The position numbers and the translations under genes are program-made. Positions 1 to 21,394 of a stretch of 45,905 nucleotides of DNA are shown here, in pieces; position 1 is the first letter of the stretch; the number at the start of each line of letters is the position of its first letter. Origin of the DNA: a virus (taxonomy: Duplodnaviria > Heunggongvirae > Uroviricota > Caudoviricetes); the IMG/VR virus record IMGVR_UViG_643348547_000010, positions 1 to 45,905 of that record. The stretch is one strand, 5' to 3'. Under the pieces are notes generated by a model. The model searched no databases and was not told where the DNA came from. It was given only the letters and a program-made list of their open reading frames with translations.

Positions 1-367
1 ATGAAGAAAGTTTTTCTTTGCGCCATCTTAGCCTCCTTAAGCTATCCGGCTATCGCCTCATCATTGCAGGATCAACTCTCTGCTGTCGCAGAAGCGGAAC
101 AGCAAGGTAAAAATGAAGAGCAAAGGCAGCATGACGAATGGGTCGCGGAGCGCAACAGGGAAATCCAGCAAGAGAAGCAACGTCGCGCAAACGCCCAGGC
201 CGCCGCTAACAAAAGAGCGGCAACGGCAGCGGTAAATAAGAAAGCTCGTCAGGATAAACTGGACGCCGAAGCCTCTGCGGATAAAAAACGCGATCAAAGT
301 TATGAAGATGAGCTACGCAGCTTAGAGATTCAGAAACAAAAACTGGCGCTGGCGAAAGAAGAAGCCC
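1..367 (+). pseudogene. Secreted coiled-coil protein gene, 5' portion, interrupted by IS629 (continues at 3948)
   Basis: ORF starts at 1 with signal-peptide-like N-terminus (MKKVFLCAILASLSYPAIA), Lys/Glu/Gln-rich body; reading frame runs into IS629 left end at 368. Confidence 0.6.
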
Positions 368-421
368 TGAACCGCCCCGGGAATCCTGGAGACTAAACTT
401 CCTGAGAAAGAGGTAAACAGG

Positions 422-748
422 ATGACTAAAAATACTCGTTTTTCCCCCGAAGTCCGTCAACGGGCAGTCCGTATGGTTCTGGAAAGTCAGGGCGAATATG
501 ACTCACAATGGGCGACAATTTGTTCCATTGCCCCAAAGATTGGCTGTACACCGGAGACTCTGCGTGTCTGGGTACGCCAGCATGAGCGGGATACCGGAGG
601 CGGTGATGGCGGGCTCACCACCGCTGAACGTCAGCGTCTGAAAGAGCTGGAACGTGAAAATCGTGAACTGCGCCGCAGTAACGATATCCTTCGCCAGGCT
701 TCCGCTTATTTTGCGAAGGCGGAGTTCGACCGCCTCTGGAAAAAGTGA
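422..748 (+). CDS. IS629 OrfA (IS3-family transposase N-terminal HTH protein)
   Basis: 108-aa [25 protein letters not shown]..., near-identical to orfA of the copies at 14287 and 15893-16219. Confidence 0.9.
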
Positions 749-1162
749 TGCCACTGCTGGATAAGCTGCGTAAGCTGTACGGGGTCGGACCGGTATGCAG
801 TGAACTACATATTGCCCCGTCAACGTATTACCACTGTCAGCAACAGCGACATCATCCTGATAAACGCAGTGCCCGTGCGCAGCGCGATGACTGGCTGAAG
901 AAAGAGATACTGCGCGTATACGATGGGAATCATCAGGTATACGGTGTGCGTAAAGTCTGGCGTCAGTTGTTACGGGAAGGAATCAGGGTAGCCAGATGTA
1001 CAGTGGCGCGCCTCATGGCGGTTATGGGACTTGCCGGTGTTCTCCGGGGTAAAAAGGTCCGCACTACCGTCAGCCGGAAAGCCGTTGCCGCAGGCGACCG
1101 CGTAAACCGTCAGTTTGTGGCAGAACGTCCTGACCAGTTGTGGGTGGCTGATTTTACTTACG
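745..1162 (+). pseudogene. IS629 orfB, 5' part, interrupted by group II intron
   Basis: Translation identical to intact OrfB (14610-15500) up to ...QLWVADFTY, then diverges exactly at the intron 5' end. Confidence 0.8.
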
Positions 1163-1818
1163 GTGTGCCCGGAGTTCAGGGCGGGCATGGATGCTTAAAT
1201 GAACCGCGAGTCTGTCTGGAATATTGAACCGGTAACTCACGATGAGAAACCCAACAATCCCACCGGGTGTGACGGTGGAGAACCTGAGCGGCAGTGACCT
1301 GCGGCATGCCCGCAGGGTGATGTAACCCGCTGACAACGGGGATTGAGGCGAGATCACTAAGCCGAGATGATCCTCAAGGTTAAGTACTGAAAGGCTGAAG
1401 AACATGAACCCGTTAATCCGCCTCTGTGGGTTGAAAACGTCACCACGGCCTACGTGATCTGACAGGCCGTGCAGGAGGAACTGGCAGTGATACGTAAGCA
1501 CTGCCGGTCGAAGGTGTTTTGACATGTATGCGAAACACCGGGGCAGCAGCGTCTATCACGCTTGCGTTGCTGACTTCTGCCAACTTGCGGCAAGCAAGGA
1601 TAAAGAGTGCGACGGGCAGCCTCCTCAGTATGCCTGAGTCCAGGCAGGTAAACCGGGGAAGGTCAGCGACGGATGTTAAGGGGGCATGGCTCCGATGACG
1701 CGCTGGCTGGCGGAGCTTCCGTAGTAGTCCGCGATGGGGAAAGCCCATTACATGGCGAAGGGAAGCAGTTTGAATGTGTTTGCGACGTGAATTAACTGAC
1801 CTAACGAGGTGAAGACCT

Positions 1819-3342
1819 TTGATAATCAGCGAAATGCAACGCAAGCTTGCCACATGGGCAGCCACCGATCCGTCCCTACGGATTCAACGGCTGCTGCGTC
1901 TAATAACACAACCAGAATGGCTGGCTGAAGCGGCGCGGATCACGCTTTCATCAAAGGGGGCCCATACCCCCGGCGTTGATGGCGTGAACAAAACAATGCT
2001 ACAGGCCAGACTGGCTGTTGAGCTGCAAATCCTCAGGGATGAATTACTCTCAGGCCACTACCAGCCCTTGCCCGCCAGACGGGTTTACATCCCTAAAAGC
2101 AACGGCAAACTGCGACCACTGGGTATCCCCGCGTTGCGGGATCGTATTGTTCAGCGGGCCATGCTGATGGCGATGGAGCCGATATGGGAGAGTGATTTTC
2201 ATACGCTCTCATATGGCTTCCGGCCTGAGCGCAGTGTCCACCACGCGATCCGCACGGTGAAATTACAGCTCACAGACTGCGGTGAAACCCGGGGACGCTG
2301 GGTGATTGAAGGCGACCTGTCCAGTTACTTCGACACCGTACATCATCGACTGCTGATGAAGGCTGTACGCCGCAGGATCAGTGACGCACGTTTCATGACT
2401 CTGCTGTGGAAAACCATCAAGGCGGGACATATCGATGTCGGTCTCTTTCGGGCGGCCAGTGAAGGTGTGCCACAGGGCGGTGTTATATCGCCGCTATTAT
2501 CGAACATCATGCTGAATGAGTTCGATCAATACCTGCATGAGCGCTACCTGAGCGGGAAAGCCAGAAAAGATCGGTGGTACTGGAATAACAGTATCCAACG
2601 GGGCCGAAGTACGGCGGTCAGAGAAAACTGGCAGTGGAAACCCGCGGTGGCGTACTGCCGCTATGCCGATGATTTTGTCCTCATCGTCAAAGGCACCAAA
2701 GCACAGGCGGAAGCCATCAGGGAGGAGTGTCGGGGTGTGCTCGAAGGCAGTCTGAAACTCAGGCTGAACATGGATAAGACTAAAATCACCCATGTTAATG
2801 ACGGCTTTATCTTTCTGGGGCACAGGATCATTCGCAAACGCAGTCGTTATGGCGAGATGCGAGTGGTCTCAACGATCCCGCAGGAGAAAGCCAGAAACTT
2901 CGCCGCATCGCTGACAGCACTGTTATCAGGCAACTACAGTGAAAGCAAAGTCGATATGGCTGAACAACTCAACCGAAAACTGAAAGGCTGGGCCATGTTC
3001 TATCAGTTCGTTGATTTTAAGGCCAAAGTCTTCAGTTATATCGACCGTGTCGTGTTCTGGAAGCTGGCTCACTGGCTGGCCCGCAAATACCGTACAGGTA
3101 TCGCTTCCCTGATGAGGTGGTGGTGTAAATCACCGAAACCGGGTCAGAGCAAAACGTGGGTTTTATTTGGTAAAACCAATCACGGCAAGCTCAGCGGCGA
3201 AATACTGTACCGGTTGGTGGGGCAAGGCAAGAAGCTGTTCCGCTGGCGGCTACCCGAAGGTAATCCCTATCTGAGGACGGAGACCAGAAACACGTATACA
3301 TCGCGCTTTACAGAAGTGGCAATGGCGTTCGCCAGCATTTAA
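1819..3342 (+). CDS. Group II intron-encoded reverse transcriptase/maturase
   Basis: 507-aa ORF with RT palm motifs (FDTVHHRLL, YADDFVLIV) and C-terminal maturase-like region; no HNH/En motifs visible. Confidence 0.9.
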   Translation: MIISEMQRKLATWAATDPSLRIQRLLRLITQPEWLAEAARITLSSKGAHTPGVDGVNKTMLQARLAVELQILRDELLSGHYQPLPARRVYIPKSNGKLRPLGIPALRDRIVQRAMLMAMEPIWESDFHTLSYGFRPERSVHHAIRTVKLQLTDCGETRGRWVIEGDLSSYFDTVHHRLLMKAVRRRISDARFMTLLWKTIKAGHIDVGLFRAASEGVPQGGVISPLLSNIMLNEFDQYLHERYLSGKARKDRWYWNNSIQRGRSTAVRENWQWKPAVAYCRYADDFVLIVKGTKAQAEAIREECRGVLEGSLKLRLNMDKTKITHVNDGFIFLGHRIIRKRSRYGEMRVVSTIPQEKARNFAASLTALLSGNYSESKVDMAEQLNRKLKGWAMFYQFVDFKAKVFSYIDRVVFWKLAHWLARKYRTGIASLMRWWCKSPKPGQSKTWVLFGKTNHGKLSGEILYRLVGQGKKLFRWRLPEGNPYLRTETRNTYTSRFTEVAMAFASI

Positions 3343-3347
3343 ATGGA

Positions 3348-3381
3348 GAGCCGGATGCGCTGAAAGGTGCACGTCCGGTTC
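3348..3381 (+). ncRNA. Group II intron domain V
   Basis: GAGCCGGATGCGCTGAAAGGTGCACGTCCGGTTC: 34-nt hairpin with AGC triad and GNRA-type loop, located just after the IEP stop and followed by a short domain VI-like hairpin. Confidence 0.8.
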
Positions 3382-3404
3382 GGGGAGGAGAGGCAGGGAA
3401 ATAG

Positions 3405-3905
<501 letters not shown>

Positions 3906-3947
3906 GTTCACAGATAAAACACTCTCCAGGAAACCCGGGGCGGTTCA

Positions 3948-6422: not shown

Positions 6423-6449
6423 CCCGCAATATTTTGCGGGCTTTTTTTT
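6423..6449. terminator. GC hairpin plus T8 run abutting the tailspike stop codon
   Basis: CCCGCAATATTTTGCGGGCTTTTTTTT; the U-run is on the plus strand, so it is a better plus-strand than minus-strand terminator. Confidence 0.4.
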
Positions 6450-9400
6450 AACGTTCTTCCAGAGACTGAACCCGCTCTTTTATCTTATCCATTTCTCTGC
6501 GCTGCCATGCTGCCTCGATATAGAATAAGAGATCAGGTCTGACCCCCCATCTAGATCCTGCTGGCGTTATTTCAACGCGCTCAATGATGTCTTCTATTAC
6601 CATCACTGGATTATCATCCTCATCAACAATGATGCTCCCGTCATTATCAGTCAGCGGCATTTCCCTTTGGCCAGTAATGACGTCATCATATACTGCGGGA
6701 TAATCGTCATAGCAAAGAAAGGCATAGCGGCATGTTGTGCTTTCTTCTTCCATGAGTCCGTGAGAAATAAGAACATCACGAAGTTGCTGCGCGATTACAC
6801 CATGATGTATCCTCGCCCCTTCTTCCCCCTTTATAGCGACAGCGTTCAGCCATTTATAAGCGATATACCTGACGTCACCCCAGGCATCCAGCAATGCTTC
6901 GTCAGGAGAGACCGGCTCTGTCTTTAATGTTCCGTCACTGGTAACCACAGGATTGGAGCCAAGATAAACTGTCGAGAACCTGTTTCCCGGACCACCAAGA
7001 GCATTTACATTATCAAGATAAGGTTTAACATCTCCGTTCTCAAAAAGATGTTCGAGTGCGTTATATACCGCGCGACGTGGAGTACTGCTTCCGGAACCAT
7101 GCAACGTTATCATTGCACCATCTGCTGAAGACGTTGTTTCACCGCCGCTAACGATTAATCTCTGAGCGGTAACATCATCAGACGGTACTTTCTTCGCAAT
7201 AATGGCGTAATTACCCTCAAGTTTGACTTCCGCGCGAACTTGTCCTGATGTACCTGCATGGACAGTCAGTGACTGGACGGCAACATCATCTGTGAAATCA
7301 ACGGGTACAGGAACCGTCCTCACGCCTGACGTCGACATAAAAGTAGGAAGCGTTCTGTTAGGAGTGGCTCCGTAGACAAAATCCCTTGAAACAAATTCTT
7401 CCTGTTTAATTTTCACCCTGAAACAATACAAATCAGCCGGGTGACCATCGTGAACATAAGGATATTTTCTGTTGTTATCCCCTATGCTCCATGGGTTTAG
7501 AAAGTCTTCCCCACCGAAAATGTAGTACAGCCAGTTGTCTTTGATACAAACTGAACCAACACCAACCGCAGAGTTAACTATTCCGCCCTGATAAATCTGA
7601 TCAGTAACATTAACCCACTCTACATTATCCAGACTCCACTCATTGACGTTAACTCTGGTCATAAATGTTCTTGGATAATTTCCTGCATAACGGTTATCAG
7701 GTTCTCCTCCTTCCCACTCACCAAATGCGCGCTCACTGCCAAAAATAATCAGCTCATCGCCAACTTTGGCAAAAGGAAGGTTTGAGTGATGAACATTATT
7801 TGGGAAGCGAAGAGAATTCCATGATGTACCTAAATCAGAGCTTCTGTGCAATGAACTACCGGGTTGAGTACTTAATGTCCCCCTGGTCGTCAGATACAGA
7901 ATGCCATCATAATATTTTACACATGGCTCAGATGCATTCGCCTCATATTCTACAGGTATGCGTCTGCGAACAAAGCTACCAGGAGAACCGAAAGCATCAG
8001 AGAAATAGAGTATCCCAAGCTCGCGTGGACCAATATCACCATTATGGTAGCCAACAGCAAAACTGTTATCGCTAATCGTCGCAAAACTGTGAATCTCAGT
8101 AACAGGAGTGCTTCCGTCAACAAAAGAAGGAATAGTTCCAAGACTGGTTTTTCTCCATGGTGACGAGTGAAATGATGTGCCAAAACTCCAGTATCTACCC
8201 TCGTTATTCTGATCCACATCCTGGGTATTTTGCGTCGTAACTGTAAAGGTATTTTTATCAATAACAGTAGTCACCGTCATATTCCCGGTAACACCTGTAA
8301 CACCAGAGTTTGAGAAGTTGACAAAATCACCAGCAAATAATCCGTGATCAGTAATGCGAATATAAGCGACTTGCTGATTTGCTGCTTTCGTTATACCACC
8401 ATAAACGCGAAGGCTGCGACTCATTGGGCGATCCCACAACTCTGCAACCTGCAGTTTATTTCCTCTCACGGTCCGCGTCTCAATTACAGCAAAAAGGCGA
8501 TTTCTGACAACCCCCATACTCATGCAGTGATAGTTAACTGTGGGATAGTTTTCATGTAAATCTGTAAGCCATTCCGGCGTTGTCCAGGTCTTCCCGTCAT
8601 CTCCTGAGCGAACCCATGCAACATGGAGGTTATTTACACCATGGCGGTCTCCAGCCATAAAAGGCGCATAGATGACATTGTCATATACAAACGTTTTATC
8701 CTGCGTCCAGGCGTTGTACCACGGTGTATCTGTAATTTTAAATAACTCTCCCTGGATAAAATCTTCAGAAGCATAAAAAAGAGGCTGGCCCGGTATTCTC
8801 TCAAATAAAAAACGAGCATTTTTAAATCGACTGACATCCGGAAGAGTTGATACTTTAAAAGTAAGCCCTAATCCGTCAATTTTATAACCTGGAGATGAGG
8901 CTTCAAGGCACGCGCTTATTGCAGTGGAATCGTCATTTATACCATCACCAACAGCTCCAAAATCTTTGGGGCTAATAGCATCACGCATTTTATCCTGGAA
9001 CGTTCGGTACACAGCCCCAGAACCATACTGAATAAACCAACCAAAACCACCAACAACTCCGGCGATTGCAGCATCGACATAATTACGCATTGAGCGATTA
9101 TTTACAGCGTCCTGCTCAAATGATGGATCTGCAAGGTTAGAAATTTTGTTTTGCTTTGCATCGTAATATTTTGCAAGCAAAGATGGTTTCATCAATGCAC
9201 GTCTGAACCACCCAAAACATTGCTGGATCAGCATCGTCAGGTAGTCAAAGGCATCTTCATGCACTTCGGGGAAAAATTTTCCCTGATTGCGAAGGTCTGT
9301 GTCCTGCACTACATCAAGCACACGATCTATCGTAATTCGCCATCCAGTAGCAAGCGGAGACGGAAGAACCACAGAACCGCCACTATAAGTGCCCGCCACA

Positions 9401-9567
9401 GTTACCGTATAACCGGTATCCAGGACCAATTCTGTTACGTTCCCGTTCAGGTCAGACACCTGAACAACCAGGTCTGATTTTCTGAAAATTCGAAAAGTAT
9501 ACGGAAACGATGTCGTAACGCCGTTACCGGTGTATTCGTTGTGGTCAACTTCGGTTGAGACCGTCAT
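6448..9567 (-). CDS. Tail fibre/tailspike: T7 gp17-like N-terminal adaptor, glycosidase-like body with Asp-box motifs, C-terminal intramolecular chaperone (peptidase S74-like)
   Basis: N-terminus MTVSTEVDHNEYTGNGVTTSFPYTF... and NLADPSFEQDAVNNRS resemble tail-fibre N-domains; DFGAVGDGINDDSTAI beta-helix-type motif; Asp-boxes SGDDGKTW and SSDLGTSW; C-terminal ...SDGTLKTEP...HHGVIAQQL... chaperone-like. Confidence 0.8.
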   Translation of the reverse strand: MTVSTEVDHNEYTGNGVTTSFPYTFRIFRKSDLVVQVSDLNGNVTELVLDTGYTVTVAGTYSGGSVVLPSPLATGWRITIDRVLDVVQDTDLRNQGKFFPEVHEDAFDYLTMLIQQCFGWFRRALMKPSLLAKYYDAKQNKISNLADPSFEQDAVNNRSMRNYVDAAIAGVVGGFGWFIQYGSGAVYRTFQDKMRDAISPKDFGAVGDGINDDSTAISACLEASSPGYKIDGLGLTFKVSTLPDVSRFKNARFLFERIPGQPLFYASEDFIQGELFKITDTPWYNAWTQDKTFVYDNVIYAPFMAGDRHGVNNLHVAWVRSGDDGKTWTTPEWLTDLHENYPTVNYHCMSMGVVRNRLFAVIETRTVRGNKLQVAELWDRPMSRSLRVYGGITKAANQQVAYIRITDHGLFAGDFVNFSNSGVTGVTGNMTVTTVIDKNTFTVTTQNTQDVDQNNEGRYWSFGTSFHSSPWRKTSLGTIPSFVDGSTPVTEIHSFATISDNSFAVGYHNGDIGPRELGILYFSDAFGSPGSFVRRRIPVEYEANASEPCVKYYDGILYLTTRGTLSTQPGSSLHRSSDLGTSWNSLRFPNNVHHSNLPFAKVGDELIIFGSERAFGEWEGGEPDNRYAGNYPRTFMTRVNVNEWSLDNVEWVNVTDQIYQGGIVNSAVGVGSVCIKDNWLYYIFGGEDFLNPWSIGDNNRKYPYVHDGHPADLYCFRVKIKQEEFVSRDFVYGATPNRTLPTFMSTSGVRTVPVPVDFTDDVAVQSLTVHAGTSGQVRAEVKLEGNYAIIAKKVPSDDVTAQRLIVSGGETTSSADGAMITLHGSGSSTPRRAVYNALEHLFENGDVKPYLDNVNALGGPGNRFSTVYLGSNPVVTSDGTLKTEPVSPDEALLDAWGDVRYIAYKWLNAVAIKGEEGARIHHGVIAQQLRDVLISHGLMEEESTTCRYAFLCYDDYPAVYDDVITGQREMPLTDNDGSIIVDEDDNPVMVIEDIIERVEITPAGSRWGVRPDLLFYIEAAWQRREMDKIKERVQSLEER

Positions 9568-10067: not shown

Positions 10068-10180
10068 TTTACATCGCACTCCTCTTGTGCCATAGTAATC
10101 GGGCACTGGCAAAATCCAGTGCCGGGATTGGTCTCCCGGATTACTAAGTGGCGCATACCACGCCAGACGTGGTTTTTTTA
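10059..10180 (+). ncRNA. Candidate structured leader or small RNA upstream of antirepressor gene
   Basis: About 120 nt between promoter/operator and an intrinsic terminator; contains stem-loops CACTGG...CCAGTG and CCGGGA...TCCCGG; no convincing ORF (track ORF 10119-10310 starts at GTG with no RBS). Confidence 0.3.
10158..10180 (+). terminator. Intrinsic terminator
   Basis: CCACGCCAGACGTGG followed by T7. Confidence 0.6.
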
Positions 10181-10337
10181 TGCGTATAGCACAGTCATGC
10201 CAGAATTATGGTGGGCTGAATGGGGGTCCGAAAGGACGCCGGTACCACTTAGGCCGGTAAGACCAACTCCGTTCAGTTCACCACCATCTGATTGGTCTCA
10301 GCGGTGGTGATGTAATTCGCTAAGTGGAGACGCCATC

Positions 10338-10994
10338 ATGAACGCTCAACTCATCCCCGTATTCAACGGCACTATCGCCAACGAAACCACTCTTCTCGTT
10401 AATGCTCGCGATTTACATACTTTTCTTGGGGTAGGTAAACGCTTTGCATCGTGGATTACAGAACGCATTGCTGAATATGGTTTCGTTGAAAATCAGGACT
10501 ATATTTTGGTTTCCCCAAATCGGGAAATCAAAGGTCGAGGAGGCGATCGCCGTAGCAAAGACTATCACCTCACCCTCGATACGGCCAAAGAAACTGCGAT
10601 GGTCGAGCGCAACGAAAAAGGCCGCCAGATACGCCGATACTTCATTGAATGCGAGAAACGTTTAAGACAACAAGAAACAAAGGTGGAGAAGGTCTTGTCA
10701 GGCTTCATGCCCGCCATTATGGAGGCGATCAAACTGGAAGACAAAAAAGAATACAGTGCCCCACTGAAGCCAGGCTACCGTAGCCTGATTCATTCGCCGT
10801 CTGGTGTTCTCGGCCTGACGGAGAACTCACTGCTGATGAATCTGCTGAACCAGTTGCAGGAAGACGGGCACGATGTATCGGGCGCGGCGGCGGAACTGAC
10901 CACCATGTTCTGCTACATCGTCGGTGTGAGCAAATGCCTGCGTGATATCCAGACGCACGCGGAGTACATCAACGACAAGGCAGGATTCTTCTGA
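10338..10994 (+). CDS. Antirepressor, AntA-like N-terminal domain plus C-terminal domain
   Basis: N-terminal DLHTFLGVGKRFASWITERIAEYGFVENQDYIL pattern typical of AntA/AntB-type antirepressors; RBS GGAG upstream. Confidence 0.7.
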   Translation: MNAQLIPVFNGTIANETTLLVNARDLHTFLGVGKRFASWITERIAEYGFVENQDYILVSPNREIKGRGGDRRSKDYHLTLDTAKETAMVERNEKGRQIRRYFIECEKRLRQQETKVEKVLSGFMPAIMEAIKLEDKKEYSAPLKPGYRSLIHSPSGVLGLTENSLLMNLLNQLQEDGHDVSGAAAELTTMFCYIVGVSKCLRDIQTHAEYINDKAGFF

Positions 10995-12389: not shown

Positions 12390-12578
12390 TTATTTTATTA
12401 TTCTTCCGAACAATACAATTCCGAATACTACAAAGCCGAACCATGCCGCTGCACGCAACAGAGATTCCAATTGAAACCCATTTTTATCAAAATGTATGAA
12501 TAGCATAAAAACGCTGCACATATTAGTACAATAAAAGTTATTTGAACCATCATATCTCCTTTTATTGCGGAGTGACAT
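12390..12578 (-). CDS. Small hypothetical protein with C-terminal hydrophobic segment
   Basis: 62-aa ORF only; overlaps the end of the upstream gene. Confidence 0.3.
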   Translation of the reverse strand: MSLRNKRRYDGSNNFYCTNMCSVFMLFIHFDKNGFQLESLLRAAAWFGFVVFGIVLFGRIIK

Positions 12579-14232
12579 CCTGTGGTCGCCACCAGTATGT
12601 CTGGTTAAACTCTTTCTTCGAACGTTGCTCCATTTTACGCAAATAGCCTGGTGAAAAATACTCCTGCATCTGGTTAAAGATCATGTGATCGAGAGCCGCC
12701 TTCAAGTACCAGAGATTCGCACCAGGCATCAAACCTTTCCCCAGCTTCACCAGATCACCACCAGTCTGCTCACTCTTCCCTTCCACAGCATTTAACGGTA
12801 TGCCCTGAGCAATCTTCACTACGTCATCAACCAGACCAGCTACCGGGCCAAGCATCGACGCCAGCGCGCCGCTTCCGTACCTAGTGTGATCTGACAATAA
12901 AAAGTCACCGTAAAGGCCAAGACCACCACCTTTCAGTAGAGCACCAAGCCAGAATTTTGCGGCATCTTCTCCTGTCATCTCTCGAGGATTACGACCAGAC
13001 GCAAGGTCGTTAAGTTGCTGCGACAAAGCGCCAAGAATGGTCGTACTGGCAATAAACGTCGCAATATATGCCGCACGCCCACCAGCAGACGGCATACCCA
13101 TAGCGCGTGACCAGTGACGCATAACAACCGAGATAGGGAACGATTTAAACAGGAAAACACTTCTCGTTAATTCACCTTTCCATGTTCCACGCTGAATACC
13201 AGAACCGGTTATCAGTTGCTCACGTGCTCCCGGTGTAATAACAGCCATATCAACTTCTTCAGTTACGGCACCGAGCAGTTTACGCATTGCCTCAAATTTC
13301 ACGCGTTCAGGCTCACCAAGATGTTTAACTGCTGAATCAGGGATACGCATAATGCTTTCCGGTGTCAGCATCGTATTATTACCGTTCCCCCAGTCCTCCT
13401 GTTTCGCCAGCTTCCATACGCTCCAGTCTGTGTCAGTAATCCCTTTGCTTTTCAGGATACGAAAATCAGAGTCATCGAGGCTACGAAGGTCTGGTGTCCG
13501 TGACACTACTTCTCCCAGGCTTCCCATCATGGTTACGCCATAGGCGCGCTTGTGCGCATCTGACCATGCTGTAAGCCCACTGGCACGCATTACCGCCGTT
13601 GCCGCCCAACGAGACACTGACGGCCCCATATTATCCATCGCCCAGCGGTTAACGCTGCCAAGTAGAGATTCCATCGCCAGACCAGCGCGGCGCGCCCGCG
13701 CAAGTTCTGTACGGTTCGTTGGGTCCATAGCTTCAAGCTGGTTGCGGAATAACTGGTTCATTGGAAGGTTGGTAACCTTCGCAGACAGATACATGGTTCC
13801 AAGATCAGAGAACGATGACAGCAACGCGGATCCGAGTCTGCTGGCAACCAGCCAGTTGCGGATATTGTCAGACCATCGCGCGATGTGCGGATTCGCTACA
13901 GGCTGTGTCTTTCCGGAAATAAAGTTGTACAGATTCTCTGTGTTGTTCGCCAGCCGCTCGACTTTACCGGTTTTACTCGGGTTAGCTGTTGCCGTTTCTG
14001 CCTTCACCTGATCAAGAAGAGAGCGGAAAACATGATCGGGGTTTGGGCCATATGTTTCCACCAGTGCAATATCTTTACTGATACCTTCCAGGTGACCGAC
14101 CATGATTTCCCATAGAGAGCGATCGCCATAAAGTTGCTGATATTGCAGATAGGAATCTGCATCTTTGAAATGTATCTGTCGTGATGCATTACCACGGTTA
14201 GCACGTGCGCCGGAAATTCGCATTCCGGTATC
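12562..14232 (-). pseudogene. Internal virion (ejection/core) protein gene, C-terminal portion, separated from its 5' part by IS629 copies
   Basis: 557 codons of phage sequence downstream of IS629 left end; the track ORF (12562-14325) starts inside the IS. Confidence 0.7.
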
Positions 14233-14286
14233 TGAACCGCCCCGGGAATCCTGGAGACTAAACTTCCTGAGAAAGAGGTAAACAGG

Positions 14287-14613
14287 ATGACTAAAAATAC
14301 TCGTTTTTCCCCCGAAGTCCGTCAACGGGCAGTCCGTATGGTTCTGGAAAGTCAGAGCGAATATGACTCACAATGGGCGACAATTTGTTCCATTGCTCCA
14401 AAGATTGGCTGTACGCCGGAGACTCTGCGTGTCTGGGTTCGCCAGCATGAGCGGGATACCGGGGGCGGTGATGGAGGGCTCACCACCGCTGAACGTCAGC
14501 GTCTGAAAGAGCTGGAACGTGAAAATCGTGAACTGCGCCGCAGTAACGATATCCTTCGCCAGGCTTCCGCTTATTTTGCGAAGGCGGAGTTCGACCGCCT
14601 CTGGAAAAAATGA
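14287..14613 (+). CDS. IS629 OrfA
   Basis: 108-aa ORF, same protein as 422-748 apart from one residue. Confidence 0.9.
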
Positions 14614-15500
14614 TGCCACTGCTGGATAAGCTGCGTGAGCAGTACGGGGTCGGACCGCTATGCAGCGAACTGCATATTGCCCCGTCAACGTATTACCACT
14701 GTCAGCAACAGCGACATCATCCGGATAAACGCAGTGCCCGTGCGCAGCGCGATGACTGGCTGAAGAAAGAGATACAGCGCGTATACGATGAAAATCACAA
14801 GGTATACGGTGTGCGTAAAGTCTGGCGTCAGTTGTTACGGGAAGGTATCAGAGTGGCCAGATGCACTGTGGCACGTCTCATGGCGGTTATGGGACTTGCC
14901 GGTGTTCTCCGGGGTAAAAAGGTCCGTACGACCATCAGCCGGAAAGCCGTTGCCGCAGGCGACCGCGTAAACCGTCAGTTCGTGGCAGAACGACCTGACC
15001 AGCTGTGGGTGGCTGATTTTACTTACGTCAGCACATGGCGGGGCTTCGTCTATGTGGCGTTCATCATTGATGTGTTTGCCGGATACATCGTGGGGTGGCG
15101 GGTCTCATCGTCCATGGAAACGACATTCGTGCTGGATGCACTGGAGCAGGCGTTATGGGCCCGTCGACCGTCCGGCACGGTCCATCACAGTGATAAAGGT
15201 TCTCAGTATGTATCGCTGGCCTACACACAGCGGCTTAAGGAAGCCGGATTACTGGCATCAACAGGAAGTACAGGCGACTCGTATGACAACGCGATGGCGG
15301 AGAGCATCAATGGTCTTTACAAAGCGGAGGTAATACACCGTAAGAGCTGGAAAAACCGTGCAGAAGTGGAACTGGCCACACTCACGTGGGTGGACTGGTA
15401 TAACAATCGACGATTGCTGGAAAGGCTGGGCCATACTCCTCCGGCAGAAGCAGAAAAAGCTTATTATGCTTCCATCGGAAACGATGATCTGGCAGCCTGA
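14610..15500 (+). CDS. IS629 OrfB (DDE transposase catalytic part)
   Basis: 296-aa ORF overlapping orfA in the -1 frame as in IS3-family elements. Confidence 0.9.
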
Positions 15501-15542
15501 GTTCACAGATAAAACACTCTCCAGGAAACCCGGGGCGGTTCA

Positions 15543-15896
15543 GTCGCCTGCGGCAACGGCTTTCCGGCTGATGGTCGTACGGACCTTTTTACCCCGGAGA
15601 ACACCGGCAAGTCCCATAACCGCCATGAGACGTGCCACAGTGCATCTGGCCACTCTGATACCTTCCCGTAACAACTGACGCCAGACTTTACGCACACCGT
15701 ATACCTTGTGATTTTCATCGTATACGCGCTGTATCTCTTTCTTCAGCCAGTCATCGCGCTGCGCACGGGCACTGCGTTTATCCGGATGATGTCGCTGTTG
15801 CTGACAGTGGTAATACGTTGACGGGGCAATATGCAGTTCGCTGCATAGCGGTCCGACCCCGTACTGCTCACGCAGCTTATCCAGCAGTGGCATCAT
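15543..15896 (-). pseudogene. IS629 orfB, truncated
   Basis: Encodes first 117 aa of OrfB then runs into the neighbouring IS end. Confidence 0.8.
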
Positions 15897-16219
15897 TTTT
15901 TCCAGAGGCGGTCGAACTCCGCCTTCGCAAAATAAGCGGAAGCCTGGCGAAGGATATCGTTACTGCGGCGCAGTTCACGATTTTCACGTTCCAGCTCTTT
16001 CAGACGCTGACGTTCAGCGGTGGTGAGCCCTCCATCACCGCCCCCGGTATCCCGCTCATGCTGGCGAACCCAGACACGCAGAGTCTCCGGCGTACAGCCA
16101 GTCTTTGGAGCAATGGAACAAATTGTCGCCCATTGTGAGTCATATTCGCTCTGACTTTCCAGAACCATACGGACTGCCCGTTGACGGACTTCGGGGGAAA
16201 AACGAGTATTTTTAGTCAT
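15893..16219 (-). CDS. IS629 OrfA (in truncated copy)
   Basis: 108-aa ORF matching the other orfA copies. Confidence 0.85.
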
Positions 16220-16273
16220 CCTGTTTACCTCTTTCTCAGGAAGTTTAGTCTCCAGGATTCCCGGGGCGGTTCA

Positions 16274-17076
16274 GTAAGCTTATTCAGCCCACCAGTAGCG
16301 ATCGTGTTATAAGCCTCTCCAAGAAATGAAGACAACTCGGCATCGTTCATCAGTTGTCCATCGGCTCGGATATAATATTTGCGATCCAGCTTACCTATAA
16401 CATCGCTAACCCACTTATCCTTTGATACTGCCCCAACCTTTTCCATAGAATGATGTTGAGGGATCCCCCAGTTTTCGAGATAGCCAATGTCCCCACCAGC
16501 ATCATTAAACCGGCGGCGCAGCAGCTCTGTAACTTCTCTCCACGCCTTAGCACCGTTTCTTGCTTTAGCATTGCCAGTATTTTGCCCCCGCATTTCATAT
16601 ACCAGGTCACGTACGCCCGCTTCATCTTCAAACAGACCAAAAAAGCGAGGATCAACTGCTTCGAATGCCTCCTGCAATTGACTCAATGCATAATCACGGG
16701 TGGCTTTTGTTCTGGATTCAACAGAGAGGAAATTAGATTTACCGTCTGCATTAAAAGCTATAGTACGGTTAAGAGCGCCAAGTTTCCCATCAGCCCCTTG
16801 ATAGCTATTGATAAATTTATCCAATCTCTGACGTGCGGCTATAGTGAGAGCCACACGACGTTTCTTTAATGTCGCTTCTCGCTGTAATTCTTCAGATGCC
16901 AATTGTGCTGCACGATACAACCGTTCTGATTCGGAAAGTTGTCGCCACGACATCGGGTCATCACGAGCAATGGAGCGCATATTTCGATAAATGCGGTCTT
17001 CAATGTTCTGTATTTCTCGCGCCGTTAACGTGCGCTGCGCCGCCTGCTGGACCGCTTGTATACATTCCTGTCTCAT
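16274..17076 (-). pseudogene. Internal virion (ejection/core) protein gene, N-terminal portion, truncated by IS629
   Basis: Track ORF 16225-17076 reads from phage sequence into the IS end (last 16 residues IS-derived). Confidence 0.7.
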
Positions 17077-17081
17077 TTAAT

Positions 17082-18884
17082 TTAACCTCTCAAGAAACAC
17101 GCCACAGCAACATCAAACAGGCTGGAATCCTGTATTGCCTGCTCACTTTCCCTGTTCGCTTCATCCAGTACTTCACGCGCACTGCGCGATTGTGGATTAC
17201 CATCATCATCCAGCACGGTGATTATCATGTCCGGAGATTCAAGCAGCGAGTCTTCAGCTATACGCAGATCAATATCTCCTGCCGGATCTGCCATCATTTT
17301 TTGTTCTGTCTGTTGCAATATCTTACCGGGCTCAAAAGGAGCTACTTCGTCTGGCGTCCTGACCTCTGCTGTTTTATAGAATGAAACAGCCTGAGCATTA
17401 AGTTCACTTTCTGCCTGCTGTCGTCGTGCCAGTTCTGCTCGAGCTTCAAAAAACTGACCTCCAGGCTCGTGCGGCGCCAACGCGTTACGGGAAAATTCCA
17501 GGCGTTCTTGTGCCTGCCGGATTCGTTGGTCAATATCGCGAATTCTGGCCTGTTTATCTGATCGAGCACGAGACAAAGCTTTACCGCTACCAGTTGGCTC
17601 TTCTGCAAGAATTTGTGCGCGCTGTTCAGTGAGATTGTCGATAATTCGTTGGCTATTAGCGATTTCAGACTGGTAAACCTGTCTATCGCCACGCGACAAA
17701 AGCTGCGCGGCCTGTTCTTCAAGCAACCGATTTTCTATAGCGCGCGCCGTTTTTCCATCATCTACAGATGACAGAGCCTCATTAACTGCCTGAGAAAGCA
17801 GACTCTTGTGCCCAGGGATTTCACTGAAAGATGCAGACTCAACAATGCTGGCAACGTCTACAGGTCTCCCCTGGCTAACATCAGACATGGCTTTTCGCAG
17901 AGCCTGAATGTGAGAATTACGCGAAAGCACGTTGATCGGCACGCCAGGAGCAATATCAATTTCAGCATGATGAGCGGCATTCGCCGCCAGTGCAGCATCG
18001 ATATCAACTGGTGAAAAATTTGGTGCGCTTGTAGACTCGCCGCGAGAGTTAATAAATCTGCCGACACCACCAAACGCCACCCCAAGAACAGCATCAATAG
18101 CAATTGCCTGTCGATCCAACACATCATACTGGTTAGCCATTTCGCTATAGCCACCATCACGAAGCGTTTTTGCAGTAAGCCCACGCTGTGCCATACCGAA
18201 CGCAATATTTGTACCTGCGGCATAGGCAATATCTGGCGTTGCACGTACTGCTGTTGCTGCGGCGCGTCGCACTGAACTTTCACCCGTCCGCGCAAGCTGA
18301 GCCGCCACACCTTCCGCCAGCGCACCACCAGCACGTAACCCGAGGCTCATAGGGATCAGTGTTCCGGCACCAGCAGTAATACCCTGCACTAATCCCGCTT
18401 CCTGCGCCGTCCTGAAATCAACACCCTGTGCTGTAAGCCGTTCAAACTCAGAAAAACCCTGTAGAGAAGTTACCGCCGCAGCACCTCCGACCGGACCACC
18501 GAGCGTTGTACCGACAACAGCCTGCCCGCCCATATCGAACAACCCATAAAGGACCTGCCCGGCGGTTCCGGTTGTCGCGGCATCAGGCGTCAGCCGCTTA
18601 ACCTGCTGCTCTGCTAGTTTTCTCTGCTCAGCAATGTATGAAACTGAAGTGTCATTGATCGAGGTGTTTTCGTTAACAAACTGAGCAATCGGGGATACGA
18701 TTTTATCCATCCCTGCCCATAGCAACTGATCTGGCTTTGCCACCAGCCCGGAGTACAAACCAGACAATGCCGCTCCTACAGCATTGTCGAAAAAACCAAC
18801 ATCGCTGTTAAAGCCAGCTGGATTTGATGCTGCTTCGTCAAGCTGCTGATTCTGGTTTACTGGATTAAGGCCAAAGTAACTCAT
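17082..18884 (-). CDS. Internal virion protein (Gly/Ala-rich, coiled-coil C-terminal half)
   Basis: 600-aa ORF in the gp14/15/16-like block between nozzle and tail fibre genes. Confidence 0.65.
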   Translation of the reverse strand: MSYFGLNPVNQNQQLDEAASNPAGFNSDVGFFDNAVGAALSGLYSGLVAKPDQLLWAGMDKIVSPIAQFVNENTSINDTSVSYIAEQRKLAEQQVKRLTPDAATTGTAGQVLYGLFDMGGQAVVGTTLGGPVGGAAAVTSLQGFSEFERLTAQGVDFRTAQEAGLVQGITAGAGTLIPMSLGLRAGGALAEGVAAQLARTGESSVRRAAATAVRATPDIAYAAGTNIAFGMAQRGLTAKTLRDGGYSEMANQYDVLDRQAIAIDAVLGVAFGGVGRFINSRGESTSAPNFSPVDIDAALAANAAHHAEIDIAPGVPINVLSRNSHIQALRKAMSDVSQGRPVDVASIVESASFSEIPGHKSLLSQAVNEALSSVDDGKTARAIENRLLEEQAAQLLSRGDRQVYQSEIANSQRIIDNLTEQRAQILAEEPTGSGKALSRARSDKQARIRDIDQRIRQAQERLEFSRNALAPHEPGGQFFEARAELARRQQAESELNAQAVSFYKTAEVRTPDEVAPFEPGKILQQTEQKMMADPAGDIDLRIAEDSLLESPDMIITVLDDDGNPQSRSAREVLDEANRESEQAIQDSSLFDVAVACFLRG

Positions 18885-21394
18885 TGCGGAATATCTCCGG
18901 AGAATCTCTGACGCTTCTGTGTCAGATTAAGAACAACGGGAGAACCATCATCTTTCAGCAGATAACCAGTACCAAGTTTCACCAGGTACTGACTATCGCC
19001 GTAACTTTGCAAACCATACTGACCAGGCGGTGTTTTTATCCCGGAGCCGACAACTTGTTCATTCCAAGCCTGATTAACCTGCTTATCGAATTGCTCTGCA
19101 GACATTCCCCACGGCAAAAGGACATTCCCCATTCCGTTATAGTCATGCACGCCACCTGTAGCTACGTTAACAGCCTGTTTCCAGACATCATTGTCAATTT
19201 CGCCTGATACCACGCCTTTTTTCGCCATCACACCAGCGTAATAATCCTTTGCGATCTCGTATGCCATTGATGCGCCCTGAGCGTCACCAGCAAATGCATC
19301 CTTCACCATGTCAGAAAACTCAAGGCGAAGATCAGCATCTTTAGGCATCGGAATACCTTTCGCATCATCAGTACCTTTACGAGCCGCCGCGCCAGCAAGA
19401 ATTGTCTGCGCAGCGGTTTCAGGAGACACGGAAACATCCGGATTAAACCAGTTTTTTTCTGCCAAAATACCACCAGGCTTATCCATCAGTATCCCGGCAA
19501 CGGCAGCAGATGGAGCGTTGGCACTGATCTGCTGTAGTGCTGACATATACACCTGCCCACCACCAGTGCTCTGCCTGATGGTATCGAGATATGCTGCCTG
19601 TTGGGAAACTGGAGCATCACGAAAGAAAACACCGATCTGATTGGCCTCGTCTTTGGAAAAGAACGTCAGTGGAGTGCCATATGACTTAGCAAGGTCACTG
19701 ACCTGAGCGGCACGCAAGGCAACGCTCTGTCCAAAGTTATCCTTATTGCTCATGTCGATAGGCTTTGCCTGTCCGGAGGCAAGAGAGAACTGCACAGGAT
19801 CCGACTGCCGCTGCTTTATCACCTGATTTGCAGCCGAAACAACGTTGTCATAAAGAGTTGCGCGTGCCGCATACCCCTCCCCTGTATCACCAGTATCCGG
19901 GCGTAATTGCTCAACATATGCTGTAATGCTGCTTGTCGGCATGTTGCGGAAAGAGCCTATATACTGTCCGGCGATCTGCGTATTCTTAAACTCGGTATAT
20001 CGCAGGTTTCCTTCTCTGACTCCATAAGCTGCAATAAAATCATCCTCACCAGGTGGGTTAGGAAATTCAATGCCACGCATATACGCAGCCGTCGCATCGC
20101 GAACCCGGCTGTCGAGCATCGTTTTATATTCAGCCTGCTGTTGTCTGGCTAGTGCATCAGTCTGTCGCAACACGCTGGCCTGATCTGATTCACTTAAAGC
20201 ATCGAACCAGGCTATACCGGTATAACGTTTATTTTTTGTCGGTAGCTGAGAAAGCCCCAGCGCAGCACTAACACCTGCAGTTAACTGCTGATCACTGTAT
20301 GGCTGGCTACCGTTTTCATGATGGATAATGGCTGCACAAAGCGCCTTCAGGGTATCAGGATTTGATGCATCGAGAGGCTCATCAGCAGAAACGCCAAGTT
20401 GTTCGCACACTGCTTTGATATACGACATAGTGTCATTTTTATCAGTAGGCGGTGCCCAGCGATTAATTATCTCGCTGACGGTATCAATACCCTGCCGCTG
20501 ATACGACATCAGGTTCCGCCCTAATGCACGAATACCGTGTTCAGGGGTTTCGAATTTGGCAAAGCGACCATCATCACCAGTCTGCCCAACCCACGGATTA
20601 GTTTTGCTGTATTCAAGATTGCCGGGGTTATTGTTGCGTATACCGCGGGTACGATCGGAAGAGCCACTATCTGCTACAGCACGGCGATAACCAGCAGCAG
20701 TATCGCTTAACTCGCCGTTTTGCTGTCTTACCTGAAGATAGTTTGCTCCAATAGCATTTTGAGCAGTTGCTTTTGCTGTTGCTTCTTTAAACTCGATTTT
20801 CTTGGCCTGGATTTGCTCGTCACTCCAGCCATGTGCAATGCCGTAATCCTCAATTTGCTGGAAAGTTTGCTTATTAGCCAATACGTATGCGGCGTTGTCG
20901 CCATACAATGCTGCGGCATTTTTACCATTGTTCAGCAGCGTAGCCTGAAACTGGCCTTCTTCGTAGGCATTTATTTGCCCTATCTCGTGCCGCCCGGCCT
21001 GCGTAGTGAACTGAATGCGCTGCTGCTGCGCCTGCTGCATGAAAGCATTACGAGCCTGTTCATCCGGCAGCGACATAGCCAGTTGTTCGACCTGAGCATC
21101 AAACTGCTGCGTATACTCCTGACCTTTTCCAATAGCATTTTTCCCTTTCAGGTTAAGCAAACCTGTTTCAGGGTTATTCAGCAGATCGCTGCTTATCTGG
21201 CTTAAGCTAAGAGAAGCATCCTGAGCCATAGCAACATTCGCACGCTGTTTTGCCTGCGCAATAATACCTGCATATTGCTCTGCAACATCGCCAAGTACAT
21301 CACCGACATTTGGTGTCTGAAACGATGAGAATCCCTGCGTCGAAATCCCTCTGCTCTGAACCTGACGGCCCGATGTTGTTGGTACAACTGGCAT
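18881..21394 (-). CDS. Internal virion core protein (T7 gp15-like position) with a conserved globular domain
   Basis: 837-aa ORF; gene order after gp14-like gene; contains GIRNNNPGNLEY motif region. Confidence 0.7.
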   Translation of the reverse strand: MPVVPTTSGRQVQSRGISTQGFSSFQTPNVGDVLGDVAEQYAGIIAQAKQRANVAMAQDASLSLSQISSDLLNNPETGLLNLKGKNAIGKGQEYTQQFDAQVEQLAMSLPDEQARNAFMQQAQQQRIQFTTQAGRHEIGQINAYEEGQFQATLLNNGKNAAALYGDNAAYVLANKQTFQQIEDYGIAHGWSDEQIQAKKIEFKEATAKATAQNAIGANYLQVRQQNGELSDTAAGYRRAVADSGSSDRTRGIRNNNPGNLEYSKTNPWVGQTGDDGRFAKFETPEHGIRALGRNLMSYQRQGIDTVSEIINRWAPPTDKNDTMSYIKAVCEQLGVSADEPLDASNPDTLKALCAAIIHHENGSQPYSDQQLTAGVSAALGLSQLPTKNKRYTGIAWFDALSESDQASVLRQTDALARQQQAEYKTMLDSRVRDATAAYMRGIEFPNPPGEDDFIAAYGVREGNLRYTEFKNTQIAGQYIGSFRNMPTSSITAYVEQLRPDTGDTGEGYAARATLYDNVVSAANQVIKQRQSDPVQFSLASGQAKPIDMSNKDNFGQSVALRAAQVSDLAKSYGTPLTFFSKDEANQIGVFFRDAPVSQQAAYLDTIRQSTGGGQVYMSALQQISANAPSAAVAGILMDKPGGILAEKNWFNPDVSVSPETAAQTILAGAAARKGTDDAKGIPMPKDADLRLEFSDMVKDAFAGDAQGASMAYEIAKDYYAGVMAKKGVVSGEIDNDVWKQAVNVATGGVHDYNGMGNVLLPWGMSAEQFDKQVNQAWNEQVVGSGIKTPPGQYGLQSYGDSQYLVKLGTGYLLKDDGSPVVLNLTQKRQRFSGDIPQ

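Follow-up and report, generated by a model that had tools for sequence, protein, structure and literature searches.

How did a full-length IS629 and an inverted piece of another copy come to lie side by side in a prophage gene, with no target duplication around them, and what has their presence cost the prophage? The locus belongs to a prophage of Escherichia coli IAI39 (CU928164.2), an O7:K1 extraintestinal isolate and not an EHEC strain, and the window referred to here is the whole stretch of DNA that was analysed (45,905 nt). The prophage is a K1-type, Uetakevirus-like (epsilon15 / phiV10) temperate podovirus: it matches the isolated phage vB_EcoP_ZX5 in eight collinear blocks at 94–99% identity, and it is this collinearity with isolated members, at high identity, that places it in the Uetakevirus-like group.

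A putative virion protein gene in two pieces

The interrupted gene lies on the minus strand, with its 3' part at 12562–14232 (1671 nt, 557 codons; residues 269–824 and the stop) and its 5' part at 16274–17076 (803 nt, 267 codons plus 2; residues 1–267 and two bases of codon 268). Six other assemblies (L011–L013, L015–L017) carry the gene intact (2475 nt, 824 aa), and both fragments align to these copies with 0 mismatches, the translation of 12562–14232 being identical to the intact 824-aa protein from residue 269 to its end, without a start codon of its own in the phage sequence. The phage flanks of the insert are equally well preserved, with 0 substitutions in 13.8 kb relative to L011 and L016. 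Since the empty site reads GGTATC-A-GTAAGC and the IAI39 site GGTATC[2041 bp]GTAAGC, exactly one base (A) was lost. The suspicion voiced in the first-pass annotation that phage sequence might be missing thus comes down, on alignment to the intact copies, to a single base pair. Its description of flanks (ATC and GTAA) lacking a target duplication and of gene halves in different reading phases was accurate: there is no direct repeat between GGTATC on the left and GTAAGC on the right, and with an insert of 2041 nt, i.e. 1 modulo 3, the halves cannot be in phase. Codon 268 is completed by the first IS base, after which the frame enters the IS for 15 codons until a stop. Exact removal of the insert would leave a 2474-nt gene that is still frameshifted; with one base gone, such removal would not restore the gene.

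As to the identity of the product, the gene is a homologue of phiV10 gp20 (the DNA is 97.8% identical to the phiV10 gp20 region), which is itself annotated as similar to BcepC6B gp17; epsilon15 gp17 and BcepC6B gp17 have been placed in the IVP-D class (PMC4819975). A match to PHROG 684 ('virion structural protein') spans the full length of the disrupted protein, and comparison with Pfam and PDB sequences returned no match. The gene follows genes for an 837-aa and a 600-aa protein, the T7_gp14 Pfam family matches a 179-aa protein, and the cluster includes this T7 gp14-like protein together with a transglycosylase-bearing protein. Homology and synteny therefore make it plausible that the gene, first annotated as one for an internal virion protein of the ejection apparatus, encodes a homologue of the T7 gp16-type internal virion protein D, a putative ejection protein.

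Read from the sequence, the 824-aa protein is broken in two: 268 N-terminal residues, and a C-terminal part that is out of phase and has no promoter. The split gene is the sole truncated one among the genes common to the prophage and vB_EcoP_ZX5, and since all the others are full length, the prophage is probably defective, as had been proposed, through this lesion alone; infectious particles would not be expected. That the gene is essential in epsilon15-like phages is a view we extend from T7 and P22. The lesion thus pinpoints the probable cause of a non-infectious K1-specific epsilon15-like prophage in the reference strain IAI39, and identical undamaged prophages in other isolates make it a clean natural knockout of an IVP-D homologue, open to complementation. 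Its importance is mostly local.

Two IS629 alleles joined tip to middle

The insert is composed of a full-length IS629 (14233–15542, plus strand, 1310 bp; referred to as Y) abutting an inverted 731-bp piece (15543–16273, minus strand; referred to as X) that runs from IS position 731 down to position 1, the tip of the left inverted repeat, coordinates that had been given exactly in the first-pass annotation. The pair had been termed 'head-to-head': it is indeed an inverted pair, but transcriptionally the two copies are convergent, with their 3' ends facing. Y starts with TGAACCGCCCC and ends with GGGGCGGTTCA, and has the ~1310-bp length, TG start, CA end and imperfect inverted repeats of IS629 (terminal repeats TGAACCGCCCCGGG...; left, TGAACCGCCCCGGGAATCCTGGAGA; right, TGAACCGCCCCGGGTTTCCTGGAGA). 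Its coding content is that of the IS3 family, with orfA (14287–14613, plus strand, 108 aa; Pfam HTH_Tnp_1) and orfB (14610–15500, plus strand, 296 aa; Pfam HTH_21, rve, rve_3, the DDE integrase core) in 0/-1 phases and an ALIL frameshift pseudoknot in between (14568–14684; Rfam, 120 bits). X retains an intact orfA (15893–16219, minus strand; I40T) and an ALIL pseudoknot (15822–15938), its orfB being truncated to 118 codons (15540–15896, minus strand). Both parts match IS629-annotated records at ~100%: Y agrees at 100% identity with the IS (1310 bp) of record AF017626, and many E. coli genomes carry its allele (~100% identity), while X matches at 99.7% a copy annotated by RefSeq as 'IS3-like element IS629 family transposase'. 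IS629 isoforms are also annotated as IS1203 / IS3411.

All three junctions fall exactly on IS tips. On the left (14232..14233), phage sequence ending in CCGGTATC is joined to TGAACC, the tip of Y at its left inverted repeat. The inner junction (15542..15543) joins the right-end tip of Y (...GGTTCA) to position 731 of the inverted X, and since microhomology is absent there, this join looks transposase-made. On the right (16273..16274), the left-end tip of X (...GGTTCA) is joined to GTAAGC; in the intact phage GTAAGC is preceded by CGGTATCA, so that the target has TCA in common with the IS tip; this CGGTATCA is a pseudo-end that resembles the end of an IS (CGGT[A]TCA against CGGTTCA). Ordinary IS629 insertions elsewhere are flanked by a target duplication of 3 bp (nine of ten simple cases) or 4 bp (one case). 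Here the gene halves are 1 bp short of being contiguous, the flanks are ATC and GTA with one base lost, and no 3–4 bp duplication accompanies them. As had been argued from the missing duplication and the out-of-phase halves, this is not a simple insertion; the missing duplication marks the structure as rearranged, not as a different IS.

Repeated IS copies are a classic source of misassembly, and a spurious join would be a trivial explanation for an odd IS structure. However, the junctions sit exactly on IS tips, the arms are of different alleles, the unique phage DNA continues unbroken on either side, and a simple insertion with its duplication, in either orientation, cannot reproduce both outer junctions. 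An artefact in the IAI39 genome, which we take to be a finished, Sanger-era one, is thus very improbable.

The inverted arms (731 nt) differ by one mismatch only, at IS position 173 (T in Y, C in X), a similarity far exceeding chance. Near-identity of this kind could result from a single IS629 (duplication ATC) whose right 3'-OH attacked its own opposite strand at 731/732, with repair on the TCA microhomology giving an inverted partial self-copy and using up the duplication. Such a fold-back takes only two events and would account for arms that are nearly identical, a junction exactly at the right tip, flanks that are contiguous and the overlap of TCA, and in one look-alike unit (L008) the arms are indeed identical (814/814). 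Yet the sole arm difference is C173, a circulating multi-copy IS629 allele (full-length copies that differ from Y by C173 alone are present in several genomes), and a new mutation at that very position is improbable when 13.8 kb of flanks gained 0 substitutions. Moreover, the arms of another such unit (L005) differ by 5%, so that hetero-copy origins certainly occur, and we know of no documented opposite-strand reaction in the IS3 family. We consider self-copying improbable. Because C173 circulates and the flanks are free of substitutions, X and Y are best taken as two independent insertions, the alleles pointing to different donors.

Routes to the rearranged structure

The reading that we prefer, with a probability of roughly 0.45, is that two opposed IS629 insertions of different alleles occurred at one spot and were followed by one deletion with an IS end as its anchor; the exact route is our reconstruction. 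The deletion would have removed the 3' 579–582 bp of one copy and the short target duplications between the copies, leaving IRL-Y-IRR joined to X(731..1)-IRL between phage flanks minus one base. First, one copy would insert in the normal manner and duplicate 3 bp (ATC for Y, GTA for X); only a few bases away, the second would then land with its right end facing the right end of the first. The resulting intermediate with abutted right ends would read GGGGCGGTTCAATCTGAACCGCCCC or GGGGCGGTTCAGTATGAACCGCCCC, and the junction of X alone, or of a nested form, GGTATCAGTATGAACCGCCCC. The abutted right ends could subsequently behave like the reactive junction of ends in an IS circle or dimer and integrate intramolecularly at positions 729–731 of the neighbour, whereupon a ~582-bp circle would be excised and the spacer discarded. 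Besides the exact tips at all three junctions, this route is favoured by a worked strand-transfer scheme in which abutted right ends attack positions 729–731, which yields the observed product exactly.

Reactive abutted-end junctions are features of IS circles and (IS)2 dimers (IS911, IS2, IS30), and IS911, a relative in the IS3 family, reportedly inserts beside an existing end of its own kind. The adjacency of the second insertion would be in keeping with this behaviour of IS911 and with the resemblance of the target to an IS end. Work on targeted insertion of IS911 is cited in PMC7986276. Natural cases of an IS629 end abutting an IS629-type end at 3-bp spacing do exist (IRR-CTT-IRL in L039; IRR-TGA followed by a 13-nt tip in L041), the L039 junction being tandem and that of L041 ambiguous in orientation; a further candidate (L040) was discarded as a chance IR-like flank. 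Among 5,426 complete E. coli genomes, right-end-to-right-end IS629 pairs had spacers of at least 105 bp only, closely abutted inverted right ends were sought and none was seen, and the junction that we propose for IAI39 has never been observed directly.

Strand polarity bears on a further origin, in which a 2041-bp unit with two left ends was formed elsewhere and then transposed as a composite into the gene. In its favour, the insert has an intact left inverted repeat at either outer end, the two being inverted relative to each other, and a unit of 2037 bp on plasmid NZ_CP062874 aligns end to end at 96% identity. However, one concerted integration cannot give both outer junctions, as these would need a 1-nt stagger of opposite polarity, and we found neither a flanking duplication nor further copies with the identical internal junction, its 118-aa product occurring in one place only, IAI39. 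The look-alike units differ in their breakpoints (719, ~727, 814, 937) and have no duplications, and hence represent independent events. Arrival of the unit ready-made is very unlikely.

The first-pass annotation had suggested either an IS-into-IS insertion followed by deletion or recombination between IS copies. That it took at least two IS events and a deletion holds up, but the nested version is now a rival to the opposed-insertion route, possible although we doubt it. In the nested version X inserts first (minus orientation, duplication GTA) and Y then enters X at 729–731, giving X'(1310..729), Y and X'(731..1) in series with a GCGGTCTGAACCGCC-type join of X'729 and the left tip of Y; a deletion of 586 bp anchored on that tip next takes away X'(1310..729) and AGTA, through a 'sloppy' one-ended same-strand transfer or through primer realignment on the 2-nt TC during copy-out replication. 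An intact precedent for the nested state is known from plasmid p1 of E. coli E28 (L009, IS629 within an inverted IS629, 3-bp duplication ATG), and derivatives without the other recipient half are common (L005, L006, L008, L026). The IEE literature discusses models for deletions next to IS629 (sloppy strand transfer, primer slippage), and TC is common to the phage breakpoint (GGTA-TC) and the predicted X'729–731 end (G-TC). Against this, a 2-nt microhomology has a chance expectation of 1/16, and the deletion must halt just 4 bp past the end of X, a coincidence that goes unexplained. According to the strand-polarity working, the two ends are direct, not inverted, and in a synapse of canonical geometry the attack would fall on the other strand. 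Instead of two recipient halves and a duplication, IAI39 has IS positions 1–731 alone as recipient and phage DNA next to the left tip of Y, and no nested intermediate was present among the collections searched.

Three canonical insertions (Y and X 1 bp apart, then a third copy in the orientation of Y into X at 729–731) with a RecA deletion between direct copies would involve standard steps only, and the absence of duplications from 4 of 14 full-length IS629 copies surveyed implies that recombination between copies is frequent. This scheme nonetheless demands four events at one site while 13.8 kb of flanks gained 0 substitutions; being the least parsimonious, it is improbable. The copy at 368–3947, which had been named as a possible partner and described as oppositely oriented, is so relative to the X fragment only. 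It shares the orientation of Y and is only 96–98% identical, and strain CE10, in which the phage gene is undamaged, already has it at the same yfgI site; the phage DNA, both in the interval separating the IS copies and outside it, runs collinear with that of CE10 and ZX5. We therefore discount its involvement.

The three IAI39 junctions and a single-IS version of the gene were absent from the 5,426 complete E. coli genomes and from viral, genome and metagenome collections. Exact-protein look-ups of the truncated ORFs found none, a weak result given that the IAI39 annotation itself is without those ORF calls. Five draft contigs encoding the same 118-aa product do not count as further 731 junctions, as they end at normal IS position 732.

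Relation to known IS629 arrangements and abutted-end systems

The architecture in which an IRR tip adjoins an inverted 5' fragment is found repeatedly. The L005 flanks sit in different plasmid backgrounds, and neither the L005 nor the L008 flanks are contiguous in empty sites (an apparent contiguity for L008, 210/271, was a chance TCACCA match); these two structures probably arose by a different route from that in IAI39. The IAI39 case is an ordinary prophage disabled by insertion sequences and, with similar IS629 architectures known elsewhere, is not novel. For transposon biology it offers a well-resolved example of the recurrent 'full copy plus inverted 5' fragment' architecture, with the empty site known to the base and the copies told apart by allele, and could help to test models of IS3-family end deletions. 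We further raise, with some hesitation, the idea that we see here the natural footprint of a side pathway of the IS3 family, in which a second IS629 inserts beside a resident end and the reactive abutted-end junction so created integrates intramolecularly ~370–590 bp into the neighbour. To our knowledge, such a pathway is so far known mainly from IS911 plasmid assays. If this were true, the breakpoints (719, ~727, 731, 814, 937) would be set by a preferred distance of looping or by a target hot spot within IS629.

Akin to the T7 gp16-type IVP-D proteins (epsilon15 gp17, BcepC6B gp17, phiV10 gp20), the disrupted gene takes the last place in a cluster of gp14-like and large internal proteins; in contrast to them, its ejection role would follow from remote homology described in the literature rather than from a Pfam or PDB match. 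As in other IS629 gene disruptions and small deletions in E. coli, the element is 1310 bp long with orfA/orfB, ALIL and TG...CA ends, a prophage gene is inactivated, and the deletion starts exactly at the IS tip; unlike in ordinary disruptions, two alleles are joined tip to middle with no duplication and a net target loss of 1 bp. The L009 nested insertion likewise has the right tip of a full IS629 adjoining the inverted 5' part of another, whereas IAI39 is without the recipient 3' half and any duplication. Finally, akin to the abutted-end systems of IS911, IS2 and IS30, the second copy would have landed a few bases from the end of the first, and the product fits an intramolecular integration; by this analogy, however, the proposed IS629 junction would join two right ends instead of a right and a left end.

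Structure and empty site of the IS629 pair

A repeat finder run on the window returned an inverted repeat of 732 nt, with arms at 14232-14963 and 15543-16274, as well as direct repeats linking the region that begins at 367 with the one that begins at 14232. Reading of the junctions resolved the former into a complete IS629 of 1310 bp, from TGAACCGCCCC at 14233 to GGGGCGGTTCA at 15542, directly continued by IS positions 731 to 1 in reverse complement, which end on the left-end tip at 16273; the flanks (...CCGGTATC on the left, GTAAGCTT... on the right) carry no direct repeat. In the full copy (14233-15542), orfA (108 aa) and orfB (296 aa) are intact and the ALIL frameshift pseudoknot is present. 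The inverted fragment (15543-16273) retains orfA, the pseudoknot and an orfB cut to 118 codons; it could remain a source of OrfA (I40T) and of a truncated, catalytically dead OrfAB. The 731-bp arms (14233-16273) enclose the 579-bp 3' part of IS629, and homologous recombination between them would invert this segment and swap the arm owned by the complete copy, so that the labels 'full copy' and 'fragment' are interchangeable. The first-pass annotation had located and described the pair correctly, but the copies it called head-to-head are convergent, and the third IS629-like copy (368-3947) has the same orientation as the full copy, not the opposite one.

This third copy (96-98% identical) interrupts host yfgI (DUF5384) with a 4-bp duplication, GCCC, and in turn harbours a group II intron (about 1163-3423; RT/maturase ORF at 1819-3342, Rfam Intron_gpII match at 3346-3432) that divides it at IS position ~787-795. 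E. coli CE10 carries the same IS at the same yfgI site but lacks the intron. IS629 is cut at the same position next to ltrA in four comparison loci (L009, L010, L027 and L032), a pattern suggesting that IS629 contains a homing site for the intron.

The IAI39 chromosome (CU928164.2), reached by an exact match to the 600-aa protein encoded next to the split gene, is identical to the window across the 13.8 kb fetched. In six other assemblies the same neighbouring 600-aa protein is encoded beside an intact 2475-nt (824-aa) gene, which matches both window fragments (12562-14232 and 16274-17076, minus strand) with no mismatch. The site reads GGTATC-A-GTAAGC in these six assemblies, CE10, FDAARGOS_1301 and phage phiV10. 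The gene fragments in the window add up to 2474 nt (803 + 1671), exactly one base pair short of the intact gene, and the lost base is position 3 of the Thr268 codon. Residues 1-268 and a further 15 encoded by the IS make up the N-terminal ORF; the C-terminal part begins at residue 269. Such flanks, contiguous to within one base, are unusual compared with other rearranged IS629 units. Two intact-gene relatives, L011 (13.8 kb overlap) and L016 (12.2 kb overlap), show no substitution in the entire overlap and, judged by this identity, the rearrangement is very recent. No IS of any kind occurred in this gene among 5,426 complete E. coli genomes, and none of the three junctions of the pair was found in viral, genome or metagenome collections.

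Probable origin from two insertions and the loss of one IS end

In transposition it is the 3' end of an element that transposase links to the target. On this basis, the left junction points to a cut between C and A in the bottom strand and the right junction to one between A and G in the top strand; the resulting stagger is 1 nt and opposite in polarity to the 3-4-nt stagger behind IS629 duplications (3 bp in nine and 4 bp in one of the ten ordinary insertions present in the loci fetched). It is therefore unlikely that a 2041-bp unit with a left end on either side integrated in one step; in addition, the protein that marks the inner junction has a single coding locus, in IAI39. Five draft contigs encoding an identical product were discarded as further junctions: they simply end at the normal IS position 732.

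The two arms differ at one position, IS 173, where the full copy has T and the fragment C. Of the 3,714 E. coli records matching that stretch, 45 carry C173, and several genomes hold full-length, multi-copy IS629 differing from the window's full copy only by C173. Because the flanks are free of substitutions over 13.8 kb, a fresh mutation recreating this circulating allele appears improbable, and the arms most likely had separate donor copies and so record two insertion events. Such an origin would disfavour both a self-templated fold-back duplication, which we regard as less likely, and re-insertion of a copy into its own parent.

Every route to the present arrangement needs two insertions, the loss of ~580 bp of one copy and the loss of the duplications. 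We favour, with a probability of about 0.45, a route through abutted right ends. A first copy would insert normally and a second would land right end to right end with it, a few bases off; behaving like the junction of an IS circle or dimer, the abutted ends would next attack the neighbouring copy and integrate at its positions 729-731. Strand transfer would join the right tip of the full copy to position 731 of the other, whose remainder (1310 to 729) would leave as a circle, and with the spacer discarded the observed chromosome would result. If the first duplication served as a 3-bp spacer, the only extra need would be a 1-nt overlap at the distal junction, namely the A common to IS tip and phage.

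Several observations argue indirectly for this route. The target resembles an IS629 end (CGGTATCA against CGGTTCA, i.e. CGGT[A]TCA; window 14225-14232 plus 16274, with CGGTATCA running directly into GTAAGC in the intact gene), a likeness noticed post hoc, and TCA is common to the insertion site and the IS tip at the right junction. Natural IS629 end-to-end junctions with 3-bp spacers were found twice: IRR-CTT-IRL with a degenerate tandem second copy in strain XDL (L039, 1660-1735), and IRR-TGA with a 13-nt tip followed by unrelated DNA in strain UTAK-8 (L041, 1660-1690); both resemble chromosomal remnants of junctions like those of IS circles or dimers. A passage of PMC7986276 also cites a report of IS911 inserting beside its own ends. 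Against the route, we saw no closely abutted inverted IS629 right ends, all pairs seen in the 5,426 complete genomes having spacers of at least 105 bp. Again post hoc, an IR-like hot spot may lie at the insertion site. Outside the IS DNA, the window contains the motif CGGT.?TCA 10 times when both strands are counted together, and none of the collections searched yielded a second insertion at the site.

Alternatively, and in our view somewhat less probably, after a nested insertion, 586 bp would have been deleted between the left tip of the full copy and a point 4 bp past the end of the other, through sloppy one-ended transfer or primer realignment on TC microhomology. Deletions of these kinds are discussed in the literature for IS629 and IEE; the weak point of the route is that it gives no reason for the 4-bp endpoint. 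Three insertions with recombination, composite mobilisation and an assembly artefact are less likely than either of these two routes. The first-pass annotation was confirmed in its observation and partly supported in its interpretation as nested insertion with deletion or recombination between copies.

The disrupted gene and its prophage

The prophage is an epsilon15/phiV10-like (Uetakevirus-like) temperate podovirus beside yfgI, with a K1 endosialidase tailspike. From end to end, the split gene has a match to PHROG 684 ('virion structural protein'). It stands last in a cluster that also encodes an internal virion protein like T7 gp14, an 837-aa protein containing a transglycosylase-type region and the 600-aa protein; sequence searches with its product gave no Pfam or PDB match. 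Its phiV10 homologue, gp20, is annotated as similar to BcepC6B gp17, and Hardies et al. (PMC4819975) used profile comparison to assign epsilon15 gp17 and BcepC6B gp17 to the family of T7 gp16, internal virion protein D. Compared with the isolated phage vB_EcoP_ZX5, every other shared protein is full length, including terminase, portal, capsid, tail, lysis, integrase and repressor proteins. Because ejection proteins are essential in T7 and P22, we infer that the prophage is defective through the IS629 lesion alone.

Three further features were observed. The K1 endosialidase tailspike (1039 aa; 6448-9567) is complete and includes an intramolecular chaperone domain; in the 837-aa virion protein (18881-21394) the transglycosylase-like region is recognised by PHROG matches, and there is no Pfam hit; and positions 10103-10288 match the Rfam families isrK (67.7 bits) and C4 antisense RNA (61.2 bits) a short way upstream of an AntA-type antirepressor gene (10338-10994), which points to a P1/P7-style c4-ant immunity module in a podovirus prophage.

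Related IS629 architectures

A full IS629 right tip abutting an inverted 5' fragment recurs with differing breakpoints, at position 163 on plasmid p1 of strain E28 (L009), 719 and ~727 on two katP-bearing plasmids (L006 and L005), 731 in the IAI39 chromosome, 814 in the WS3294A chromosome (L008) and 937 on pERL05-1306 (L026). L009, with both halves present, is the complete form, an IS629 inside an inverted IS629 with a 3-bp duplication; the rearranged units have no target duplication. The two arms of L008 are identical and those of L005 diverge by 5%; the flanks of both loci are non-contiguous in empty sites. Three of the six independent junctions (L005, L006 and the window) fall within 12 bp, at IS positions 719-731 of the 1310-bp element, and the duplication predicted at 729-731 (GAC) is that of an unrelated IS629 insertion, L035 (CCGAC-IS-GACCAC); in this very small sample of six junctions, there may be a target hot spot inside IS629. 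Among full-length copies examined in other genomes, 4 of 14 (L031, L034, L036 and L037) lack a target duplication, which indicates that recombination or deletion between copies is frequent in IS629-rich strains.

A recent, multi-step IS629 rearrangement with loss of one phage base thus inactivates the internal virion protein D homologue of the otherwise intact K1 prophage of IAI39, and the pair, a well-resolved case, belongs to a known kind of event and does not represent a new kind of system.
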